Below, one piece after another: positions 1 to 54,937 of a stretch of DNA of 64,000 nt. Positions within the stretch are counted from its first letter, which is position 1. The number at the start of each line of letters is the position of its first letter. The translations under genes and the position numbers were made by a program. Origin of the DNA: Eubacteriales bacterium (lineage in GTDB: Bacteria > Bacillota > Clostridia > Oscillospirales > CAG-272); assembly GCA_045645405.1 (NCBI GenBank), contig JAZRIQ010000004.1, positions 5,817-69,816 of the forward strand. The letters are read 5' to 3'. A model generated the notes under the pieces. It was not told the origin of the DNA and ran no database searches. It saw nothing but the letters and a program-made list of their open reading frames with translations.

Positions 1-1053
1 TAAAACGGAAGCGATTTTATCCGCTTCATATATGCAAGCTTCTCCGCAGGAATTGTATGTGTACAACTTGTCCTCATATAGGTAAACCGCTAAACCGTCT
101 TGACAAACGTTAGCTTCGATGCTAACCTGTTCTGTCATAACGCATTCGGGTGCTTTTGCGTCGGTATCTGCGCATTTCTCGTCACAAATGGAATCAAGAC
201 CGAATTTTTTTATGAGGGAGTTAAATTCCAACTTCAAAAAAAGAGAACGAAGCTTTGAAACGTCGGCACCGCTGTATTTGTATTCTTCAATATTGTTGGA
301 GATAGGCGCATTACAAACAATAGTAGCCAAAAACTTAGAGGTAAAAGCCATTTCTTGGCCGTTTTGCAGCTTTGTTTTTATACCTGCAGAAAGAGAAGAA
401 CTTTCGTAGCTTTCATAAAGCTTTTCAAGAGAGCCAAACTCTGAAATAAGCTTAAACGCACCCTTTTCACCAATACCAGCAACTCCGGGAATATTGTCAG
501 AGCTATCGCCCATTATTGCCTTAACGTCTATATATTGCGTTGGCGTCACACCGAAATCGGCAATGAATTTTTCTTCGTTATAAATAACGTCTTCTTTTGT
601 CTTTGTAAGAATTACAGAGGTGCTGTTATTTATCAACTGCAAGGAATCTCTGTCTCCTGTCAAAATGTAAGAGTGAACGTCGTTTTTATGCTCGAATCTT
701 GATGCAGTACCGATAAGGTCATCAGCCTCATAGCCCTCAAGCTCCATCATTTTTAAGCCTAAAAGTGAAAGACATTCCTTAGCATAAGGCAGTTGTATAG
801 CCAGCTCCTCAGGCATACCCTTTCTGTTAGCCTTATAAAAATCGCAAGCATTATGTCTGAAGGTTTTAGCCTTCAAATCCCACGCAACCATAACGTAGTC
901 CGGTTTTATAGCATCCAAATGCTTTTTAATCATATTCAGCATAGTGTATATAGCATTGGTTGGAATACCCTCTTTTGTAGTAAGAGGACGCAAATTACCG
1001 TAAAAGGCTCTGTTTAGTATGCTATTTCCGTCAACAATTAAAAAGTTTTTCAT
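1..1053 (-). CDS. polA: DNA polymerase I, N-terminal 5'-3' exonuclease part (partial; continues past the left edge)
   Basis: Absent from the ORF track because it has no stop inside the window. Reverse translation from the ATG at 1053 reads MKNFLIVDGNSILNRAFYG...TGDRDSLQL...DNIPGVAGIGEKGAFKL, typical of the Pol I FEN-like domain. Confidence 0.9.
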   Translation of the reverse strand, partial: MKNFLIVDGNSILNRAFYGNLRPLTTKEGIPTNAIYTMLNMIKKHLDAIKPDYVMVAWDLKAKTFRHNACDFYKANRKGMPEELAIQLPYAKECLSLLGLKMMELEGYEADDLIGTASRFEHKNDVHSYILTGDRDSLQLINNSTSVILTKTKEDVIYNEEKFIADFGVTPTQYIDVKAIMGDSSDNIPGVAGIGEKGAFKLISEFGSLEKLYESYESSSLSAGIKTKLQNGQEMAFTSKFLATIVCNAPISNNIEEYKYSGADVSKLRSLFLKLEFNSLIKKFGLDSICDEKCADTDAKAPECVMTEQVSIEANVCQDGLAVYLYEDKLYTYNSCGEACIYEADKIASVL

Positions 1054-1316
1054 TATCTATCCTCGTTTTGCTCATTCAAAGCAAGCTCAATTCCTTGTGC
1101 AAGTTGGTCAGCGCAGGACGTACCTCTGCCACGGCAATCATTTCCCCTTAAAATTTCAATTACCTTGGTGGCATCCATTCCTTCAACTAACTTGCAAATA
1201 GCCTTTAAATTTCCGTCACATCCGCCTGTAAATGAAACGTTTGATAATTTCCCGTTTTCCAAGTCAAATTTTATCGCAATAGAGCAAACTCTCTTTGGTT
1301 TAAAGGTATATGTCAT
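1053..1316 (-). CDS. TSCPD-domain small protein (TIGR03905-like, 4-Cys)
   Basis: Track ORF 1053..1379. The internal Met at 1316 gives MTYTFKPKRVCS..FTGGCDGNLKAI..CRGRGTSCADQL. Its TAA stop shares one base with the polA ATG (TAATG). Confidence 0.7.
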   Translation of the reverse strand: MTYTFKPKRVCSIAIKFDLENGKLSNVSFTGGCDGNLKAICKLVEGMDATKVIEILRGNDCRGRGTSCADQLAQGIELALNEQNEDR

Positions 1317-46134: not shown

Positions 46135-48027
46135 ATGAGATTTTACGAAAGAAAGTATGTAGAAAAAAATGACGTTTCTTCTTTAGGTGCTTTTTTGATT
46201 AAAACAACTGTTAAATTTAAGCTTTATATTCCAAGAGGATGCGGCGCTACTTCGGTACGCCTGCATCTTTTTGGCGAGGGCATAGAGAATAGGTCGTACA
46301 GGGTGTATGAATTTGACTGGGAAACTTTAAACGGAAAATATGACGTTTATAGCCGTGAAATGATTATGACCGAAATCGGTGTAGGACTTTATTACTATAA
46401 ATACGAAATAAAATCCGACAAGGTAAGGTTTTTTGGGGCTGGAGACAAAGGCACAGAGCTTAAGGAGATAAAAGAAGGTATAAATGATGGTTTAATACAG
46501 CTTTTGGTTCATTTGGATGCGGAAAATAAGCCTGAATGGATAAAAGGCGGCATTATGTATCATATATTCGTTGACAGGTTTAAAAAGAGCGGAAAATGTA
46601 CGCCTAAAGAGTCTGCTGTCATGAATAACGATTGGTATAATGGAATACCTCAATATCCGGATACACCTGGTGGATATGTGGAAAACAATATGTTTTTTGG
46701 TGGTGATTTATACGGAATTATCGAAAAGCTTGATTATATTCAAAGCTTGGGAGTAAATTGCCTGTATTTAAGTCCTATATTTGAAGCATATTCCAACCAT
46801 AAATATGATACGGCAGATTATATGTCCGTTGATTCAATGTTCGGTTCTGAAGAAGCTTTTAAGGAGCTTTTAAGCGAGATCAAAAAAAGAAATATGCACG
46901 TAATTTTGGACGGTGTATTTAATCATACGGGCTCGGACAGCATATATTTTAACAAAAACGGCACGTACAATTCCGTAGGTGCATATCAATCTAAAGACTC
47001 GCCGTATTATGAATGGTATAATTTTGAAGATTTCCCAAACAAGTATGAATGTTGGTGGGGTGTAAAAATTTTACCAAGGGTAAATAGCGAGAATGAAAGC
47101 TATCGCAATTTTATTTTAGGCGATGGCGGTGTGATTGAAAAATGGATGAATATGGGCATCGATGGATTTCGTTTGGATGTTGCGGATGAATTAAGCGATG
47201 AATTTTTGCGAAATTTAAACAAAAAATTAAAAGAAATAAACCCACAAGGCATAATATACGGTGAAGTGTGGGAAGATGCTTCCAATAAAATTGCTTATGG
47301 AAAAAGAAAAAGATATTTCCTAGGGAATGAGCTTGATTCCGTGATGAACTATCCATTTAGAGATGCGGTAATTGAATATATAAAGTACGGCAATTCTGAA
47401 TTGTTTGCTCAAACCTGCAGAACGCTTACTTCACATTATCCGAAAGCAAATGCGGATGTTTTAATGAATATTTTGGGGACTCATGATACGGAAAGAATTT
47501 TAACAGTATTAGGTGGCGAAAACGGAGACGATTATACTAACAAAGAGCTTTCTTCTAAGGTTATGTCGGAGACAGAAAGGAAAAGAGCGATAAATATGCT
47601 CAAATTAGCTTATACAATATTAGCTACCGTTCCTGGCATTCCTTGTATTTATTATGGTGATGAAGCAGGTATGGAAGGTTATCGTGACCCCTTTAACAGA
47701 CGACCTTTTCCTTGGGGAAAAGAAGATAACGAGCTACTCGAGCATTATAGAAAAATAGGCAAAATCAGGACAAATGAAAAGCTTTATAATGACGGATATT
47801 TTGATTTGATCGAATGTACGTCTGAGTTACTTGCGTTTTCAAGATATAATGAAAATGAATTTGTTTTGACAGTAGTTAATAGAAGCAATAGGGAATTTTG
47901 TATAAAATCAAATGTAGCACTTAACGATATAGAAACATGTGAATCTGTAAATTCAGTTTTACCAAATAGCTCAATTATCCTAAAATGCAACTCGAACTAC
48001 AATGATTTATCCATAGAATTTGTATAA
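46135..48027 (+). CDS. GH13 alpha-glycosidase (neopullulanase/cyclomaltodextrinase-like)
   Basis: All four GH13 regions are present: VILDGVFNHTG, GFRLDVADEL, YGEVWED, LGTHDTERI. Confidence 0.85.
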   Translation: MRFYERKYVEKNDVSSLGAFLIKTTVKFKLYIPRGCGATSVRLHLFGEGIENRSYRVYEFDWETLNGKYDVYSREMIMTEIGVGLYYYKYEIKSDKVRFFGAGDKGTELKEIKEGINDGLIQLLVHLDAENKPEWIKGGIMYHIFVDRFKKSGKCTPKESAVMNNDWYNGIPQYPDTPGGYVENNMFFGGDLYGIIEKLDYIQSLGVNCLYLSPIFEAYSNHKYDTADYMSVDSMFGSEEAFKELLSEIKKRNMHVILDGVFNHTGSDSIYFNKNGTYNSVGAYQSKDSPYYEWYNFEDFPNKYECWWGVKILPRVNSENESYRNFILGDGGVIEKWMNMGIDGFRLDVADELSDEFLRNLNKKLKEINPQGIIYGEVWEDASNKIAYGKRKRYFLGNELDSVMNYPFRDAVIEYIKYGNSELFAQTCRTLTSHYPKANADVLMNILGTHDTERILTVLGGENGDDYTNKELSSKVMSETERKRAINMLKLAYTILATVPGIPCIYYGDEAGMEGYRDPFNRRPFPWGKEDNELLEHYRKIGKIRTNEKLYNDGYFDLIECTSELLAFSRYNENEFVLTVVNRSNREFCIKSNVALNDIETCESVNSVLPNSSIILKCNSNYNDLSIEFV

Positions 48028-48030
48028 TTT

Positions 48031-48064
48031 AATCCTACGAGCTTAAGAGCTTGTAGGATTTTAT
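48031..48064 (+). terminator. Terminator of the glycogen cluster
   Basis: AATCCTAC..GTAGGATT hairpin followed by TTTA-rich sequence. Confidence 0.6.
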
Positions 48065-48065
48065 A

Positions 48066-51000
48066 TTTATACAGCCTCGTTGTACGTGCTGCTATTGAGG
48101 ACTATGCGGAGCAGACAAAGGGAATGAGCAAGGCACAAGCAAGATACACCGTTGACACAGAGGTAACAGCTGACCTTGCAGGCGACCTTATGGCAGACGA
48201 TTACTTTGTAAATAAGCTTGCTGAGAGGGATGCACCGCTTGTTAAGAAGCTTGTAAATAGCTTTAAAAATACAATAAAAAAATCCGCTACCGTTGATAGC
48301 GAATCGGTTAAGTATTTGAAAAAGCTTGTTAATAGGTTTGAAAAGGCCCTCGATAACGCAAACGGTGGAGTTAAAATTTCTCAAATCGGTAATGCAGACG
48401 ATGAGAGGGAAGAAAAAGCCGATAGCAGCCAGCAGATAGCGGATAGCAAGGTGGATGATGAGAGACAAAGCATAATTAAAAAGGCACAAAAGAACTATTC
48501 TAATGCAGAGGTGAATAATGATGTCATTGCGTTGATAACTAAAATAAATGAGGGCGATTTTAAGCAAAACGATAGAGTATATTTGGGTATTGTATCTGAT
48601 GCTATTGCAGACAAAATAGAAGAAGAGGTAGGTTTTTCTGTTCAAGGATTTAAAATGGTCATTGAGGCACGACAGATTGAGCACATCATTAAAGACCATG
48701 GAGAAAATGGAAAAACCGACCAATCAATGAAAAATCCAAATGATATTGGAAAAATGGAATATGTTCTCGATAATGCGGAAAGTGTAAAAAAGGCAGGTAA
48801 AACACAAGCATATACATATATGAAATATGGTTGGAACAGAACGGCTGATACGGTGTTATACGAAAAAATAATAGGTGATGAGTCGTATTATATTGTGCAA
48901 GCCGTTCCTGATACTAAAGCAAAAACACTGTATGTTGTTTCAGCTTTCATAGGAAAAAGTGGATATAAAAAAGAAGCCTCGCAGCTCATCAATGCCAAAG
49001 GCCCTGATGCAACGGCTAAAACCGGTTCTGCAAGTGCTTCTACTGATATTATATCCGAAAAATCTCAAAAAGACAATACTTTTGATGAAAATAATTCAAA
49101 AAATATTTCTGATGAGCGAAAATCGGTTAAGCGCTCCTATGAGCCAACAGAAGATATTCAAATCACTTTGCAGGATGTGCAAACGCTTCGCAGTATAACG
49201 CAGGACGGAAAAAGAAAAAGCATAAATGATTTTTCAAGCGCAGAAATTCAAAAAGCAGAAAAATGGGCGCGAAAATTCTACAAAGAATTAGGCGTAAAAT
49301 CTCCATTCTTTAGGGCTTGGTATGGCGATTGGAGAGTTGAGGATAAAACACCTAAAAATGGTCTTACAATATTACCTATAAATGCAGCAACACAAAAGGA
49401 TGCAGTAGATTATGTTAAATCCAAAGTAAAGGATAGAACATTTTTTAGAGGTAATATTAAAAATGATGATACAGGCTTTGATGTAAATGTGGGTTCTCAA
49501 ATTTATGATGACACACTTACATATGCAAATAGAGCATTGTCAAGAGATAAAGATTTTAGCAATTATATTAAAAGAGTATCAATTTTACAAAAGGTTAGCG
49601 ATATAGTAAAAGAGTCAGTTCTGTTTAATACATCAGTGATTGAAAGTAAAGACAAGAATGATAATCCAAATCGTACATTTATGCACAATTTTTACAATTT
49701 AATGCGTATGGATGGAACGGATTATTTAATTGTACTATCAGTAGATGAAATTGAATCAAATGCTGGTGCAATTAGGAGAGCGTATAATGTTAACAAAATA
49801 GAAATATCGCCCGTTGCGGTAACTCAGGTTTACAAGCCTGCCGGCACAACGAGCGATAGTGAAGGAAATTATTCCTTCACTTATATTATATCCGATTTAT
49901 TCAAAATTGTCAAGCAATATGATAAAGATTTTAAACCAAAATCTGTAAATCCTTTACTTTTGGATGAAAACGGTATGCCAAAGACACTATATCATCAAAC
50001 GGATGCGGACTTTAATGCTTTTGATACCTCTATCGAGGGAGCAGGAGCAAGAGATAACGAAATGCCAAACGGTATATTCCTAAAATCTACGCCGCTTGAT
50101 ATAGGACTTAAGGGCAAAAAGCAAATGAAGGTCTATGCGAACATAAGAAATCCGCTTGTTTTTGCTGACAGAGGCGAAGCAAGCAGATATTGGAAGCGCA
50201 GCATTGACGGTTACAAGGCTATTATTGATGAAATTGATAGCAATAACGTTAAGTATCAAAAGGAATTTGATGAAGCGTACGTATCGGATGATGAAGCAAG
50301 AGAGGATGCTGTTCTTGATGAATGGGAAAATGCAAATACCGATTTAGATAAGAAAGCAAAAAAACTTATTAACGAATACCTCAAGAACAACAAATACGAC
50401 GGAATTATTCTTGAAAAGGATGAGGGAAGCTTCGGCAGAAAAGTGCAGACATATATCGCACTTGAATCTACGCAAATAAAATCTGCAACGGATAATATCG
50501 GCACATTTGATTCAAGTAATCCCGACATCCGTTATTCCAAGCAGCGCTCATACAATCCTATGGACGACGTTGACGATGAAGGCAACAAATGGGTTGAAGG
50601 CGAGGATGGTGGCACAAGAATACTATTTTCAATGCCTGATTTTGACAATCCTGCTTATGAGTACGGCCATATTCCTGATGAGGAGCCTGAGGTTATTGAG
50701 ACATACCGTGCAGTTGCTTCGTCAAGTGCGGAATCCGATATAAGAAAGCGACTTGCTGACTTGACAAAGGCGAAGGTATATGCAAGAAATGAGGCAAAGG
50801 CAGCGTTTGGAGAGATAATTGAGGAATATTTTGAGGGCCTTAACGTTAAGTTCAAGGGCAAAGCCAGGGCGGAGATTGAGAGGATGCTTTGGAATGCTTT
50901 TAACTCAGCTGATGAGGGCGCAAGAATGAGTCCTGCGCTTGATATTGCAGATGCTATTATTACAAATGCAGTTGTTACAGAAAATTACGAAATTACTCCC

Positions 51001-51201
51001 GAATTGGAATACGCTTATGCAGTAACCGGGTATCTTAAGACACACTTACATAATATCAATTTGGACCATATTAAGGGTGAAATTAAGGCGAAGTACGATA
51101 AGGACACCTCTGTATATGCTATGTGGGCCCGAAAAGAGGGAGAGCGTGGTGTTACCGCCGACCAAATAAAGGACGAGCTTGAGGAAGTGTGTGGACAATA
51201 A
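48066..51201 (+). mobile_element. Probable remnant of a phage/conjugative-element cargo gene (no mobility genes retained)
   Basis: There is an abrupt rise in G+C immediately after the glg terminator. The single ORF resembles an internal part of a polyvalent protein. No integrase or flanking repeats were detected. Confidence 0.45.
48124..51201 (+). CDS. Polyvalent-protein-like multi-domain fragment (two PBECR-like nuclease-fold modules and an ART-PolyVal-like module), probably 5'-truncated
   Basis: The frame is open from 48028, through the terminator. Protein-like sequence (VVRAAIEDYAEQTKG) precedes the first ATG, which has no proper RBS. Motifs: IEARQIEHIIKDHGENG..TLYVVSAFIG; SPFFRAWYGDW; LYHQTDADFNAFD..YDGIILEKD..QIKSATDNIGTFDSSNPDIRYS. 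Confidence 0.6.
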   Translation: MSKAQARYTVDTEVTADLAGDLMADDYFVNKLAERDAPLVKKLVNSFKNTIKKSATVDSESVKYLKKLVNRFEKALDNANGGVKISQIGNADDEREEKADSSQQIADSKVDDERQSIIKKAQKNYSNAEVNNDVIALITKINEGDFKQNDRVYLGIVSDAIADKIEEEVGFSVQGFKMVIEARQIEHIIKDHGENGKTDQSMKNPNDIGKMEYVLDNAESVKKAGKTQAYTYMKYGWNRTADTVLYEKIIGDESYYIVQAVPDTKAKTLYVVSAFIGKSGYKKEASQLINAKGPDATAKTGSASASTDIISEKSQKDNTFDENNSKNISDERKSVKRSYEPTEDIQITLQDVQTLRSITQDGKRKSINDFSSAEIQKAEKWARKFYKELGVKSPFFRAWYGDWRVEDKTPKNGLTILPINAATQKDAVDYVKSKVKDRTFFRGNIKNDDTGFDVNVGSQIYDDTLTYANRALSRDKDFSNYIKRVSILQKVSDIVKESVLFNTSVIESKDKNDNPNRTFMHNFYNLMRMDGTDYLIVLSVDEIESNAGAIRRAYNVNKIEISPVAVTQVYKPAGTTSDSEGNYSFTYIISDLFKIVKQYDKDFKPKSVNPLLLDENGMPKTLYHQTDADFNAFDTSIEGAGARDNEMPNGIFLKSTPLDIGLKGKKQMKVYANIRNPLVFADRGEASRYWKRSIDGYKAIIDEIDSNNVKYQKEFDEAYVSDDEAREDAVLDEWENANTDLDKKAKKLINEYLKNNKYDGIILEKDEGSFGRKVQTYIALESTQIKSATDNIGTFDSSNPDIRYSKQRSYNPMDDVDDEGNKWVEGEDGGTRILFSMPDFDNPAYEYGHIPDEEPEVIETYRAVASSSAESDIRKRLADLTKAKVYARNEAKAAFGEIIEEYFEGLNVKFKGKARAEIERMLWNAFNSADEGARMSPALDIADAIITNAVVTENYEITPELEYAYAVTGYLKTHLHNINLDHIKGEIKAKYDKDTSVYAMWARKEGERGVTADQIKDELEEVCGQ

Positions 51202-51269
51202 ATCATTGACAAAAAATATTTTTTGTAGTAAAATTTCAGTAGAGTAAGTAAATAAATCGGGAGGATAAA

Positions 51270-51545
51270 ATGAAAAAGATTTTTTTAGCATTTACTATTT
51301 TTGTTGTATTTTTATGCTCCTGTTATAATGGTTATGATATACACGTTTATGATACGTCTGGAGAGTTTCCCTATATCGAAGATACATCCGGTACAGCTTA
51401 TGTGGCAAGTGTCAATGGGAAAACGTATCATTTGAGAGATTGTTATATTGTTGACAATATGAATGAGGAGAATGTGAGAGTTTTTTACGATAAAGACTTC
51501 TTTGTCAAAAGAGGAATGTCGCCCTGTAAAAAATGTAAGCCTTAA
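51270..51545 (+). CDS. Small lipoprotein with C-terminal HxxxC...CxxC motif
   Basis: Lipobox FLCSC. GGGAGG RBS. A TTGACA-17-TAAAAT promoter lies upstream. C-terminus YHLRDC...SPCKKCKP. Confidence 0.6.
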   Translation: MKKIFLAFTIFVVFLCSCYNGYDIHVYDTSGEFPYIEDTSGTAYVASVNGKTYHLRDCYIVDNMNEENVRVFYDKDFFVKRGMSPCKKCKP

Positions 51546-51627: not shown

Positions 51628-53274
51628 ATGAATTGCAATTATATCGCAGATTTACTTTTTCCGAACGTTACTTTAACTGAATCGGAATTGGAAGAAAAAT
51701 ATCCTGTAAGAAATCTTCCGGAAGGAGCAATAGTTTCAAGAATGGCTCCAAGTCCTACCGGTTTTGTCCATCTTGGAAATTTAGTGCAAGGAATTACGTC
51801 CGAGCGTTTGACACACCAGTCAAACGGTTGTTTGTTTTTAAGAGTTGAGGATACAGACCAAAAAAGAGAGGTTGCTGGCGCTGTTGAAATTCTCATTGAT
51901 ACTTTGAAATATTATAATATAAGTTTTGATGAAGGCGCAACGTTCGATGGTGATAACGGTATATACGGACCGTACCGTCAAAGACAAAGAAAAGATATTT
52001 ATCACGTGTATGCAAAACGTCTGGTTCAACAAGGAATGGCATATCCTTGCTTTTGTACAGAGGACGAGCTTGCAAAAATGCACGAGGAACAAGAAAAATT
52101 GAAGGATAATTTTGGATATTACGGAAAATATGCTGTGTGGCGCGACAAAACGGACGAAGAGATTGAAGAACAGCTGAAATTAGGCAAACCCTGGGTGTTA
52201 CGTTTCCGTTCTAACGGTTCGATAGAAAATAAGATTAAGTTTACTGATTATATCAAGGGTAATCTTGAACTTACAGAAAATGATATTGACCACGTGTTAT
52301 TAAAATCCGACGGTATTCCAACGTATCATTTTGCTCATGCAGTTGATGATCATTTGATGCGTACAACGCACGTCGTAAGAGGCGATGAGTGGCTTTCAAC
52401 ATTACCTTTCCATATTCAATTGTTTGGAGCTTTGGGATTTAAGCTTCCTAAATATTTGCACATTGGTCCACTTATGAAAATGGATGGAGACTCAAAGAGA
52501 AAGCTTTCAAAGAGAAAGGACCCGGAGCTTGCATTAACCTATTACAAGCAAGAGGGATATCCGGCTCAATCGCTGTATGAATATATCCTCACAATTCTCA
52601 ATTCAAACTATGAGGATTGGAGAAGAGCAAACCCTTATGCTTCAACAGAAGAATTTAAATTCTCATATAAGAAAATGAATCCTGCTGGCTCACTTTTTGA
52701 TGGAGCTAAGTTATTAGATGTTTCGAAAAATGTGATTTCAAGAATGAGTGCAGAGGATGTTTATCTGGGCGCTACAGAGTGGGCTAAAGAGTTTGACAAA
52801 GAGCTGTATGATGAAATGACTGCTGATTCTGAATATACCAAATCAATCTTTGCTATTGGTCGTGGCGGTAAAAATCCAAGAAAAGATATAGCTGTATGGA
52901 CTGACGTTAAGGGTTATATTGACTTCTTCTATGATAAATTCTTTAAAATCGCAGAAGAATATCCTGAAAAGTTTTCAAAGCACGATATCAAGTTAACACT
53001 TGAGGAATTTGTTAAAACCTTTGATATTAACGATGATTCAGGCGTTTGGTTTGAAAAAATTAAAGATATTGCAGATATGCTTGGTTTTGCTTCGGATATG
53101 AAGGCGTATAAACAGAATCCTGATGCTTATAAAGGAAATGTTTCCGATATTAGTATGTTTGTAAGAATTGCAATATCCGGTAAAATGAATGCGCCGGATA
53201 TGTATAGCTCAATGCAAATTTTAGGCTATGACAAGGTAGTAGAGCGCATCAATAATATGATTTATAGTCTTTAA
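51628..53274 (+). CDS. gltX: Glutamate--tRNA ligase
   Basis: APSPTGFVHLGN (HIGH region) and KLSKRK (KMSKS region). Confidence 0.92.
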   Translation: MNCNYIADLLFPNVTLTESELEEKYPVRNLPEGAIVSRMAPSPTGFVHLGNLVQGITSERLTHQSNGCLFLRVEDTDQKREVAGAVEILIDTLKYYNISFDEGATFDGDNGIYGPYRQRQRKDIYHVYAKRLVQQGMAYPCFCTEDELAKMHEEQEKLKDNFGYYGKYAVWRDKTDEEIEEQLKLGKPWVLRFRSNGSIENKIKFTDYIKGNLELTENDIDHVLLKSDGIPTYHFAHAVDDHLMRTTHVVRGDEWLSTLPFHIQLFGALGFKLPKYLHIGPLMKMDGDSKRKLSKRKDPELALTYYKQEGYPAQSLYEYILTILNSNYEDWRRANPYASTEEFKFSYKKMNPAGSLFDGAKLLDVSKNVISRMSAEDVYLGATEWAKEFDKELYDEMTADSEYTKSIFAIGRGGKNPRKDIAVWTDVKGYIDFFYDKFFKIAEEYPEKFSKHDIKLTLEEFVKTFDINDDSGVWFEKIKDIADMLGFASDMKAYKQNPDAYKGNVSDISMFVRIAISGKMNAPDMYSSMQILGYDKVVERINNMIYSL

Positions 53275-53284
53275 GAGGTAACAA

Positions 53285-54937
53285 ATGGAAGAAATTAGTT
53301 CAAATTTTATACACGATATCATTGACGAAGATATCGCAAATGGTTTTTCAGAAAGAATTCATACACGTTTTCCCCCAGAGCCAAACGGATATCTTCATAT
53401 CGGTAGTGCAAAAGCTATTTGGATAAACGTTCAAACCGCAAAAAAATATGGCGGACTTTTTAATCTTCGTTATGATGATACAAACCCGTCAAAGGAAGAT
53501 ACGGAATACGTAGATAGCATATACGAGGATTTAAAATGGTTGGGAGCCGAGCCAACAGGGGGCGTTTTTTACGGTTCTGATTATTTTGAAAAATGTTATG
53601 AGCTTGCAATTAAGCTTATTAAGGATGGAAAGGCATACGTTTGTGATCTTTCCGCCGATGAAATGAAGGAGTATAGAGGAACTCTTACCGAACCCGGCAA
53701 AAATAGTCCGTACAGAAACAGAACTGTTGAGGAAAATCTCGATTTGTTTGAAAAAATGAAAAACGGAGAGTTTCCGGACGGTTCTAAAACGTTAAGAGCA
53801 AAAATTGATATGGCATCTCCAAATATCAATATGAGAGACCCTGCAATTTACAGAATTTTAAGAGCTCATCATCATCGCCAAGGCGATAAGTGGTGCATTT
53901 ATCCGCTTTATGACTATGCACATCCAATTCAAGATGCTATTGAAGGTATCACTCACTCTCTTTGTTCACTTGAGTTCGAAAATCATCGTCCTCTCTACGA
54001 ATGGGTAGTAAACAACGTTGGCTTTGACAAAAAACCGAAGCAAAGAGAGTTTGCAAGACTAAACGTTACTTATACGGTAATGAGTAAGAGATACTTAAGA
54101 TATCTTGTTGAAAATAACCTTGTTGACGGTTGGGACGATCCAAGAATGCCAACTCTTTGCGGTCTTAGAAGAAGAGGATATACCCCTGCATCAATTATTG
54201 ATTTTGTTTCAAGAGCAGGCGTTGCAAAAGCATACAGTATTGTTGATATTGAGCTTTTAGAGCATTGTATAAGAGAAGAACTTAATATGACTGCTCAAAG
54301 AAGAATTTGTGTTGCTGATCCGATAAAGCTTGTTATTACCAACTATGATGAAGGTAAGGTGGAATATTTCCCGGTATCTAACAACCCAAATGACGAAAAT
54401 GCAGGAACAAGAATGCTTGCCTTTACAAGAGAAGTATATATTGATAGGAGCGATTTTGAGGAAGTTCCTCCTCCAAAGTTCTTTAGATTAAAGCCTGATG
54501 GTGAAGTTCGCTTAATGGGAGCTTACATTGTTAAGTGTAATGAGATTGTAAAGGATGAAAATGGTAAAATCATCGAAATTAGATGTACCGCTGACCTGGA
54601 GTCAAAGAACGGAAATCCTGTGGATGGAAGAAAAATCAAAGGTACAATTCATTGGTTAAGCCGTGAAAATTCAGAAAAAGCAACCCTCATGCTTTATGAT
54701 AAGCTATTTACGCTTGAAAATCTTGCAGATATGCCTGAAGGTAAGACTTACAACGATTATCTTAATCCTAATTCATTACAAAAGGTTGAATGCGCTCTCG
54801 TTGAAAAATGTTTAAATGATGCCGATTCTGGTGAAAAGTTCCAATTTGTAAGAAACGGCTATTATTGCAAAGATACTAAATATGCAAATACTTACAACAG
54901 AATAGTAGGCTTAAAGGATAGCTTTCCTAAAAAATAG
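53285..54937 (+). CDS. glnS: Glutamine--tRNA ligase
   Basis: RFPPEPNGYLHIGSAKA and VMSKR motifs; the C-terminal beta-barrel anticodon domain has the expected length. Confidence 0.95.
   Translation: MEEISSNFIHDIIDEDIANGFSERIHTRFPPEPNGYLHIGSAKAIWINVQTAKKYGGLFNLRYDDTNPSKEDTEYVDSIYEDLKWLGAEPTGGVFYGSDYFEKCYELAIKLIKDGKAYVCDLSADEMKEYRGTLTEPGKNSPYRNRTVEENLDLFEKMKNGEFPDGSKTLRAKIDMASPNINMRDPAIYRILRAHHHRQGDKWCIYPLYDYAHPIQDAIEGITHSLCSLEFENHRPLYEWVVNNVGFDKKPKQREFARLNVTYTVMSKRYLRYLVENNLVDGWDDPRMPTLCGLRRRGYTPASIIDFVSRAGVAKAYSIVDIELLEHCIREELNMTAQRRICVADPIKLVITNYDEGKVEYFPVSNNPNDENAGTRMLAFTREVYIDRSDFEEVPPPKFFRLKPDGEVRLMGAYIVKCNEIVKDENGKIIEIRCTADLESKNGNPVDGRKIKGTIHWLSRENSEKATLMLYDKLFTLENLADMPEGKTYNDYLNPNSLQKVECALVEKCLNDADSGEKFQFVRNGYYCKDTKYANTYNRIVGLKDSFPKK

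Follow-up and report, generated by a model that had tools for sequence, protein, structure and literature searches.

A fragment of a phage polyvalent effector gene as an allele of a hypervariable, recombining locus next to the glycogen operon of uncultured Clostridia

We analyzed an open reading frame (ORF) located next to the glycogen (glg) operon in a 64,000-nucleotide stretch of DNA (hereafter, the window) from a Eubacteriales bacterium of the class Clostridia (assembly GCA_045645405.1, contig JAZRIQ010000004.1, positions 5,817 to 69,816). The ORF encodes a protein of the polyvalent, i.e., multi-effector, class, and is a fragment of a phage gene that is now one of many alleles at a chromosomal locus. 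It occupies positions 48124..51201 of the plus strand and contains 1025 amino acids (aa) plus a stop, counted from the first ATG; its frame is open across 48028-51201, which corresponds to 1057 codons, and all residue positions below refer to this 1057-codon frame. A first-pass annotation, made from the sequence alone, had described an uninterrupted 3.1-kb ORF with a frame already open through the glg terminator hairpin, and both features were recovered here. When the region was shuffled 500 times, the longest open stretch had a mean of 77 and a maximum of 185 codons, compared to 1057 in the real sequence. Approximately 4.8% of point substitutions in the ORF produce a stop codon; the probability of an intact frame is 0.05 at 2% neutral divergence, and that of an intact 1025-codon ORF is 6e-4 at 5% neutral divergence. 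The protein (P0001) forms a singleton cluster in a collection of 5.8 billion proteins.

The upstream neighbor (46135..48027, plus strand; Pfam Alpha-amylase, 5e-59) is a gene of the GH13 alpha-amylase family, the last one of the glycogen operon, and the order glgB-C-D-A-P-amylase is kept at all related loci, as judged by synteny. The TAA stop codon of this gene is at 48025-48027, and the open polyvalent frame starts immediately 3' of it, in the same frame. The left boundary of the insert is formed by the native intrinsic terminator of the glg operon (48031..48070, plus strand; a 13-bp stem and a T-tract in the terminator scan), in which the hairpin itself spans 48031-48060 and is followed by the T-tract. 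An equivalent hairpin is found at the same position in the empty site L009, described below, and in every allele with a direct junction. No good plus-strand promoter was found in the scan upstream of the ORF, and the ATG at 48124 is not preceded by a Shine-Dalgarno (SD) motif, there being just AAGGGA that touches the ATG; the scan thus bears out the earlier statement that the ORF has neither a promoter nor a usable ribosome-binding site. The right boundary is the promoter of the next gene (TTGACA-17-TAAAAT; 51206..51234, plus strand), which was identified by the promoter scan (11/12) and by the alignment of 3' junctions, and is kept at occupied and empty sites alike. This gene is a 91-aa ORF with a strong SD motif (51270..51545, plus strand); because its homolog is present at the empty site L009, it is native and not an immunity gene carried by the insert. 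The flanks of the insert contain no direct or inverted repeats that could be candidate att sites or target duplications. No capsid, portal, conjugation, integrase, or immunity gene was found near the ORF, in line with the first-pass annotation, and there is no second copy of the polyvalent gene within the 64-kb window. The flanks (glg genes, gltX, and glnS) are core genes, syntenic with those in the genomes with an empty site; therefore, no mobile-element genes accompany the ORF.

The protein is modular, and the matches to Pfam families were judged against gathering cut-offs. It begins with a conserved N-terminal linker (48098..48465, plus strand), which was delineated by blastn among the inserts and is 83-88% identical at the nucleotide (nt) level to other-species alleles at the site. 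It probably corresponds to the helical stretch located after the lost metallopeptidase motif; its ratio of nonsynonymous to synonymous divergence (dN/dS) is 0.09-0.19, with dS of 0.53-0.89. The first predicted enzyme is the PBECR3 module (PF18812; aa 188-312; 48589..48963, plus strand; 5.8e-14, 52.4 bits, cut-off 30), which had been recognized as PBECR-like in the first pass. PBECR3 is a predicted metal-independent RNase with the Barnase/EndoU/ColicinE5-D/RelE fold; the window protein keeps 38 of the 40 columns conserved at 85% or more among 82 homologs, including H219, H224, and K280. The closest copies of this module are 63-65% identical, the prophage protein P0033 being among them. PBECR3 is an insertion relative to the backbone of the P0003/L101 type and is missing from allele L101. 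A short inter-module linker follows (49032..49145, plus strand; blastn among inserts); it is 86-93% identical at the nt level, with different modules on either side, and is a likely crossover site for module exchange. The next module had been taken for a second PBECR, but Pfam assigns it to LPD3, the large polyvalent-protein-associated domain 3 (PF18798; aa 455-575; 49390..49752, plus strand; 2.2e-7, 31.5 bits, cut-off 27), with conserved D481, H553, Y556, and E574. The last recognizable module was correctly anticipated as ART-PolyVal-like (PF18760, Tox-ART-HYD2-like; aa 646-827; 49963..50508, plus strand; 2.5e-16, 61.1 bits, cut-off 31.2). The H-Y-D triad of this predicted ADP-ribosyltransferase (ART) is intact, and H656, Y703, and D791 are each 98-100% conserved in 43 homologs; a triad of H in strand 1, Y in strand 2, and D in strand 5 defines this ART clade (Iyer et al. 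2017, PMC5512222). Against 42-82 homologs, the window protein has lost virtually none of the strongly conserved columns.

The remaining part is a C-terminal tail (aa ~831-1057; 50518..51198, plus strand), predicted to be mostly helical, of which the segment 50518-51082 is 79-90% identical at the nt level to other alleles (blastn). No Pfam family matches the tail, which thus stays unassigned, as it was in the first pass; AlphaFold2 applied to it with a 9-row alignment gave an unusable model, with a predicted local distance difference test score (pLDDT) of 38. Searches of the window protein against PHROGs, PADLOC, NCBIfam, and PDB sequences produced no match, and no MuF domain was found in the Pfam search. 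The protein is also devoid of the zincin-like metallopeptidase hub domain, which is common but not obligatory in polyvalent proteins. It carries PBECR3, LPD3, and ART-PolyVal in one polypeptide, all above the cut-offs, and on this domain composition it belongs to the polyvalent class, as had been proposed. Two observations concern the opposite strand. An antisense ORF over the N-terminal linker (48067-48723, minus strand, 218 aa) is almost certainly spurious, and five other alleles are open there for 68-89 codons only. Separately, a perfect sigma-70 consensus, TTGACA-17-TATAAT (12/12), is located inside the gene at 49885-49913 on the minus strand, in an AT-rich stretch between LPD3 and ART, and is adjoined by a 10-bp hairpin (49858-49881, plus strand); the chance of such a perfect match in the region is roughly 1%, and an antisense RNA covering the 5' half of the gene could start from this site. 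Close relatives at the nt level are lacking for the module that contains it.

Both ends of the gene are cut. Homology to longer proteins begins at codons 19-22 (nt ~48082-48091), i.e., 11-14 codons before the first Met, which is codon 33 (BLASTP, MAFFT); because the homology starts before the Met, the window gene is 5'-truncated. The zone in which non-homologous sequence gives way to polyvalent homology (..AIEDYAEQTKGM..) spans 48061..48091 of the plus strand, and the break is placed between 48061 and ~48090. It should be noted that the first-pass annotation had reported protein-like sequence upstream of the Met and proposed a loss of the 5' part at about 48066; the former is now explained by homology, and the latter is compatible with the break as placed. 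At the start of homology, the window codons read ..AIEDYAEQTKGMSKAQARYTVDTEV.., and P0027, P0029, P0063, and P0067 read ..AIQDYAEQTKGMSKAQARYT(V/F)DTEV.. at residue ~359. In these four proteins and in P0021, the sequence that opens the window gene is found in the interior (residue ~359), some 50 aa C-terminal of an HExxH motif (HEMTHSAEG). P0003 and P0072 have sub-threshold matches to DUF6782, a "putative metallopeptidase", at the corresponding HExxH region, and the positions of these matches fit the alignment. The alignments indicate that the 5' cut took away this zincin-like peptidase motif and everything N-terminal of it. At the other end, the window protein reads ..DELEE and then VCGQ*, and five bases separate this end from the -35 box that belongs to the next gene. 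Since L106, P0003, P0012, and P0072 continue beyond ELEE with ..GIRIDAINEADIF.., the window gene is 3'-truncated as well; the long proteins add hundreds of residues. With the PBECR3 insertion set aside, the window allele aligns collinearly with residues ~274-1064 of P0003 (1702 aa). In tblastn, the alignments of P0003 and P0072 run on into the 3' end of the amylase gene; this extension is weak and was rejected as spurious, being possible through the shared frame.

The same site is occupied in other genomes, with the gene order amylase, polyvalent gene, 90-aa ORF, gltX-like gene, glnS, GH3, and infC-rpmI-rplT. At least 10 other sequence-distinct alleles were found, i.e., at least 11 including that of the window: L001 (P0005, 954 aa), L002-4 (P0004, 964 aa), L005-7 (P0007, 888 aa), L040 (P0067, 1834 + 199 aa), L041 (P0027, 1030 + 97 aa), L042 (P0063, 742 + 436 aa), L101/102 (P0002, 738 aa), L103 (P0021, 664 aa), L106 (P0017, 658 + 235 aa), and L008, in which the protein is partial because the contig ends. 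Thus, the description of the gene as an orphan holds with respect to the mobile-element context and fails in the sense that the gene is not a lone one. The hosts are uncultured Clostridia/Eubacteriales, largely from ruminant gut, and identical alleles were recovered from 3-4 independent samples. The earlier proposal to compare occupied and empty sites in relatives could be carried out with ten occupied loci or groups and the empty L009. In L009, a close relative, the terminator is followed by the promoter within ~100 nt, and the 90-aa ORF is present; the more distant relatives L010, L012, and L015 are also empty at this site. We compared amylase dN among the lineages with a full-length amylase gene, the values for L015 being unreliable due to a frameshift. 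L002/L005, L008/L041/L042, L101, L103, and the empty L009 form a cluster (0.05-0.085), and the window genome is an outgroup, at 0.115-0.138 to the cluster. An insert is present here in at least six other lineages in which synonymous divergence of the flanks has reached saturation.

Every allele has its own 5' and 3' breakpoints. The 5' breakpoints of the direct-junction alleles form a nested series within ~110 codons, just after the native terminator: (HE)MTHSAEG in L103, AIEDYA in the window, AEQTKGM in L001, IDTEV in L002, TADL in L005, DDYFVNKL in L106, and PLLKKL in L101. The 3' breakpoints are nested too, and each allele reaches as far as the -35 region of the gene downstream. The longest 3' extension is that of L106; L101 ends with ELEEIIPGK* and the window with ELEEVCGQ*, and the breaks are at DHIKGE in L001, at KTH in L002 and L103, and at ADEGA in L005. 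The L040-type alleles, found in one species, have ~360 extra N-terminal codons and an IS3-like remnant. In L008 (8017-8192, minus strand) and in the same region of L040, L041, and L042, short ORF fragments lie between the amylase gene and these longer alleles; by eye, they resemble the core of an IS3-family transposase (..DKPLEKLAIDVTEFKV..), which suggests that an insertion sequence (IS) was involved in early truncation.

The alleles are mosaics. In blastn comparisons, three conserved segments (48098-48465, 49032-49145, and 50518-51082 of the window) alternate with modules that are dissimilar at the nt level between alleles. PBECR3 is present in the window, L002, and L005 and is not present in L101, and LPD23 is found in L001 and L040. 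ART-PolyVal was detected in the window, L001, L002, L005, L040, L101, and L106, or in 8 of 11 alleles if L008, itself not assessable, is included; it is mostly accompanied by PBECR3 and/or LPD3. The module composition of the window allele was not seen among the other alleles. Comparisons of the window to other species gave dS from 1.3 to >3 and 60-77% nt identity for the flanks, versus dS of 0.33-0.9 (1.16 in one tail comparison) and 79-93% nt identity for the conserved polyvalent segments. The opposite was observed in a single species (L008, L040, L041, and L042; amylase dS 0.003), in which strains are 95.5-100% identical over the left, non-coding portion of the insert, while identity drops to 81-94% in the polyvalent coding DNA (dS 0.34-0.45). 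Replacement of modules occurs among strains of one species, and L040 and L042 share an 800-nt segment that is 99.4% identical, beside regions of ~90% identity. The alleles and their hosts thus have histories that are decoupled in both directions, pointing to an allele pool shared across species and to frequent recombinational import. As a separate observation, L002 and L005 hardly differ in the genes left of the polyvalent gene (dS 0.05 for glgP and 0.18 for the amylase gene), and to the right of it orf90 is saturated, dS is 1.39 for the gltX-like gene and 0.87 for glnS, and GH3 is close again (0.29); these values indicate that a large recombination tract between the two strains ends at or near the polyvalent locus.

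Signatures of purifying selection are found in the conserved N-terminal linker and tail. The dN/dS ratio is 0.09-0.19 in all comparisons of the N-terminal linker and the tail, including that of L002 and L005; the set leaves out a mis-framed pair, window 1019-1118 vs. L002. L002 and L005 are close strains, and their polyvalent dS (0.08-0.13) matches that of the left flank (0.05 for glgP and 0.18 for the amylase gene); there are 24.8 synonymous and 14.2 nonsynonymous differences between them (P = 3e-9 against neutrality). Ratios were higher, 0.38-1.5, for the short linker between modules and for two internal segments exchanged recently, each on very few differences. The reading frame provides another signal. 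The polyvalent frame is the same as the amylase frame in six of the seven direct-junction alleles and is open from the TAA in five of them; the in-frame junctions are at 48025-48124 in the window, 9575-9640 in L002, 9980-10040 in L005, 2611-2670 in L101, 9968-10010 in L103, and 5959-6030 in L106. By chance, such a match has a probability of 0.007 with independent junctions and of 0.018 when L002 and L005 are taken as one, the observation being post hoc. Under neutrality, neither independent junctions nor successive trimming would preserve the frame; the shared frame could reflect stop-codon read-through, coupling, or in-frame trimming under selection. The junction sequences of the direct-junction alleles contain no SD motif before the first start codon and no conserved start codon.

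Relatives outside this site connect the gene to phages. P0033 (1387 aa, with a PBECR3 module 63% identical) is the last gene after a P22-type portal gene and twelve further genes; one gene between the portal gene and P0033 matches the PHROG "virion structural protein", and P0033 is at the edge of a prophage, beside host genes. On the viral contig L051, PBECR3 is part of an ORF that is at least 1946 aa long; an "internal virion protein" gene (phrog_511) precedes this ORF at a distance of two genes, and an endolysin gene is nearby. These contexts agree with the notion that polyvalent proteins are packaged in the virion and injected with DNA (Iyer et al. 2017, PMC5512222). Several homologs of the window protein carry MuF_C (PF18819). 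The scan of viral sequences with the whole window protein found nothing, and a 35-nt linker pattern that is invariant in seven aligned loci had no exact matches in IMG/VR. The metagenome scan with the amylase gene revealed distant loci only, and the protein search with the N-terminal linker alone returned no match, not even the window protein itself, which looks like a word-index limit. Ten proteins share the N-terminal linker at high identity, and all nine whose contigs were checked (P0029 was not looked up) are from the amylase-gltX site. Stand-alone copies were also observed elsewhere in chromosomes. P0008 (L104, 10001-12592) is a polyvalent gene between ylxM-ffh-rpsP and spoIIID, and P0003 (L045, 5608-10716; L044, 919-6027) is between glycoside hydrolase genes and a SASP gene, where, in L044, it adjoins TIR and helicase defense-type genes. 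Solo chromosomal copies of polyvalent genes may be common in these gut Clostridia.

Two neighbors of the locus have features of their own. The 91-aa ORF has a promoter of its own and a hydrophobic N terminus; it is conserved at the occupied sites and in L009, and no homolog was detected in relatives more distant than L009; family searches gave nothing significant, the only matches being insignificant Ada-Zn and HNH-like ones. The gltX-like gene (51628-53274) and glnS (53285-54937) are adjacent and evolve at very unequal rates: the gltX-like protein is just 55-65% identical between species (TIGR00464 score of 295.9, cut-off 289.95), and GlnRS is ~93% identical between the same species.

Polyvalent proteins have been described in three contexts, the third of which comprises copies without mobile-element neighbors, read as host-acquired remnants that are possibly defensive (Iyer, Burroughs, Anand, de Souza & Aravind 2017, J Bacteriol, PMC5512222). 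The window protein resembles the class in having several defining effector domains in one polypeptide and relatives in virion modules of phages, and the lack of mobile neighbors corresponds to the third context; the first two contexts, beside packaging/virion or conjugation genes, apply to P0033 and L051 and not to the window copy. Unlike typical polyvalent proteins, the fragment has no metallopeptidase or virion-targeting part and, unlike those described so far, it is fixed at one core site across species, is trimmed to the signals of its neighbors, and has no expression signals of its own. The orthologs of jhp1044 in Helicobacter (pro)phages (PMC5512222) are similar in occupying an orthologous position with many domain combinations, produced by duplication, rearrangement, and exchange of modules of the PBECR/LPD3 type; however, they sit inside (pro)phages, whereas the mosaic locus analyzed here is flanked by housekeeping operons and has no phage genes around it. 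MuF polymorphic toxins of temperate phages (Jamet et al. 2017, BMC Biol, PMC5576092) are likewise phage-encoded, virion-associated proteins with variable toxin/effector modules. They differ in having an N-terminal MuF/SPP1 gp7 domain, a position adjacent to the portal gene, and a strictly C-terminal variable part, whereas the window protein has no MuF domain and no portal or immunity neighbor, and its variable part is internal. A functional model for the action of the parental protein upon entry into a cell is phage T4 Alt, an ADP-ribosyltransferase carried in the phage head and injected (PMC5512222); however, it is a single-domain enzyme of the R-S-E clade, and the window ART is of the H-Y-D type, in a fragment with no delivery route. 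The locus also differs from known anti-phage defense systems: the ORF has no PADLOC match, and its neighbors are housekeeping genes and not a defense island. Another parallel is provided by the orphan toxin cassettes of Rhs/CdiA systems, which are 5'-truncated, promoter-less fragments that can recombine with full-length genes through shared conserved segments. Those cassettes follow an expressed main gene and carry immunity genes, and, within the 64-kb window, the locus has neither. A comparison to Rhs/CdiA orphan cassettes has been drawn for some polyvalent loci (Iyer et al. 2017, PMC5512222).

Three conclusions are firmly supported: the ORF is an internal fragment, cut at both ends, of a phage polyvalent effector gene that has become resident in the chromosome; it is one allele of a locus that is hypervariable, recombines, and has an age exceeding that of a single strain; and it is neither a recent neutral leftover nor a complete native gene. 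Selection at the host level is likely, and maintenance of the locus by the host for a function, which we consider about as probable as not, is our preferred explanation. The following sequence of events is consistent with the data. A piece of a phage multi-effector gene, whose product would have been packaged in the virion and injected with the DNA, was the probable origin; what remains, in order, is the putative helical region after the lost metallopeptidase, PBECR3, LPD3, the H-Y-D ART, and part of the helical tail. Deletions from both sides may then have trimmed the fragment until its limits coincided exactly with the glg terminator and the next gene's promoter. Alleles would swap modules by homologous recombination at the conserved linkers, drawing on a cross-species pool, while the coding sequence would be held under purifying selection and stay in the reading frame of the amylase gene. 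Because the gene has no promoter or SD motif of its own, it could be expressed only through read-through of the glg terminator combined with either translational coupling or rare read-through of the amylase stop codon, and we infer that expression would be weak. The protein, if made, would be a 116-kDa cytoplasmic protein with RNase-type and NAD+-dependent ART modules and with no self-processing peptidase or delivery domain; its role might be that of a conflict effector acting by RNA cleavage and ADP-ribosylation, most plausibly against invading phages or mobile elements.

Several observations weigh against such a host-maintained function. Direct-junction alleles lie behind a terminator and have no promoter, SD motif, or conserved start; the ORF is split by a frame change in four alleles (L040, L041, L042, and L106); both ends are eroding, and at least one lineage (L009) is without the insert. 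Two predicted toxic enzymes are encoded with no immunity or regulatory gene alongside, and PADLOC, NCBIfam, and PHROG searches with the window protein gave no match. Furthermore, recombinational import is demonstrably frequent, so that much of the low dN/dS could be inherited from donors, and the statistic on the amylase frame is post hoc.

The strongest competing explanation, to which we assign a lower, although still substantial, probability, is that the locus is a non-functional relic. Its open frame and low dN/dS would then persist through repeated overwriting of the interior at the linkers by functional polyvalent genes of infecting or resident phages, or by alleles of other strains, with deletions nibbling at the ends. 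In a variant of this explanation, included in the same estimate, the relic is a silent reservoir of modules that serves phages, similar to the Rhs/CdiA orphan cassettes. That imports are real is evident from the one species in which divergence is far higher in the polyvalent coding DNA than in the non-coding DNA beside it; the replacement of modules between strains of one species, the nearly identical 800-nt segment of L040 and L042, the missing promoter and SD motif, the four split ORFs, and the nested erosion at both ends also fit a relic, and cassette-like recombination has been mentioned for polyvalent loci (Iyer et al. 2017, PMC5512222). On the other hand, no phage donor was found, the invariant linker pattern being absent from IMG/VR, and each high-identity copy of the N-terminal linker that was looked up (9/9) comes from this same chromosomal site. 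The extreme 5' ends cannot be refreshed, since they have no upstream homology, yet they are conserved like the remainder of the gene. Conservation of the amylase frame is left unexplained by a relic, and in L002 and L005 the polyvalent dS equals that of the flank, with dN/dS of 0.08-0.18.

A stronger version of host use seems rather improbable to us. Here, the locus would be a domesticated, diversifying multi-effector gene with trace expression obtained via the amylase gene (by read-through of the TAA and the terminator, or by obligatory coupling), with trans-species polymorphism and arms-race selection. As a part of this proposal, new RNase and ART modules would be recruited from invading phages at the conserved linkers, making the locus a host 'module-capture' site for immunity or counter-attack. 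Dependence of expression on the amylase gene would explain why its frame is kept in six of the seven alleles.

We consider it very improbable that the gene is a recent neutral leftover of a single insertion in the window genome. Such a history would account for the singleton status of the allele, and the intact ORF is compatible with less than ~1% neutral divergence, but the comparative data largely refute it: the site is occupied in at least six other lineages with synonymously saturated flanks, the nearest alleles are separated from that of the window by dS of 0.3-0.9 with dN/dS of ~0.1, and the window allele has its own trimming at both ends and a module composition unseen elsewhere. The first-pass annotation had offered very recent acquisition or selection as the two choices; a simple recent neutral insertion is excluded by the dN/dS of ~0.1-0.2 and the conserved frame, and selection is likely, with the addition that recombination within a shared pool is frequent. 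Finally, the idea of a complete native gene that starts at ATG 48124, with coincidental upstream similarity, is hardly tenable: although L001 (P0005) starts at the same Met, it is the only relative to do so, the relatives share no start and none has a promoter, this ATG has neither a promoter nor an SD motif, homology reaches 11-14 codons upstream of the Met (~50 codons further in L103), and the Met is internal in P0021, P0027, P0029, P0063, and P0067 and missing from L002, L005, L101, and L106.

The polyvalent class, the host-held remnant context, and module mosaicism are already known (PMC5512222), and our literature search on domesticated polyvalent proteins found nothing beyond Iyer et al. 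What appears to be new is the fixed core-genome site across species, the trimming to the terminator and promoter of the neighbors, the two-way decoupling of allele and host history, and the frame relation to the upstream gene. Polyvalent proteins are widespread and almost uncharacterized by experiment, and the idea of host-kept remnants rests on context alone. The locus offers a natural test series, with at least 11 alleles and an empty site at one fixed core-genome position. The series shows that the metallopeptidase, the extreme N terminus, and the tail end can be dispensed with, that ART-PolyVal, most often along with PBECR3 and/or LPD3, tends to be kept, and that exchange takes place at short conserved linkers. 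The conserved frame relation to the amylase gene might indicate an unusual route of expression. If the protein is not made, the locus would be a dead gene that recombination keeps looking alive, and a caveat for calls of function based on dN/dS; if it is made, it would clearly exemplify how an effector that phages inject becomes a gene of the host.

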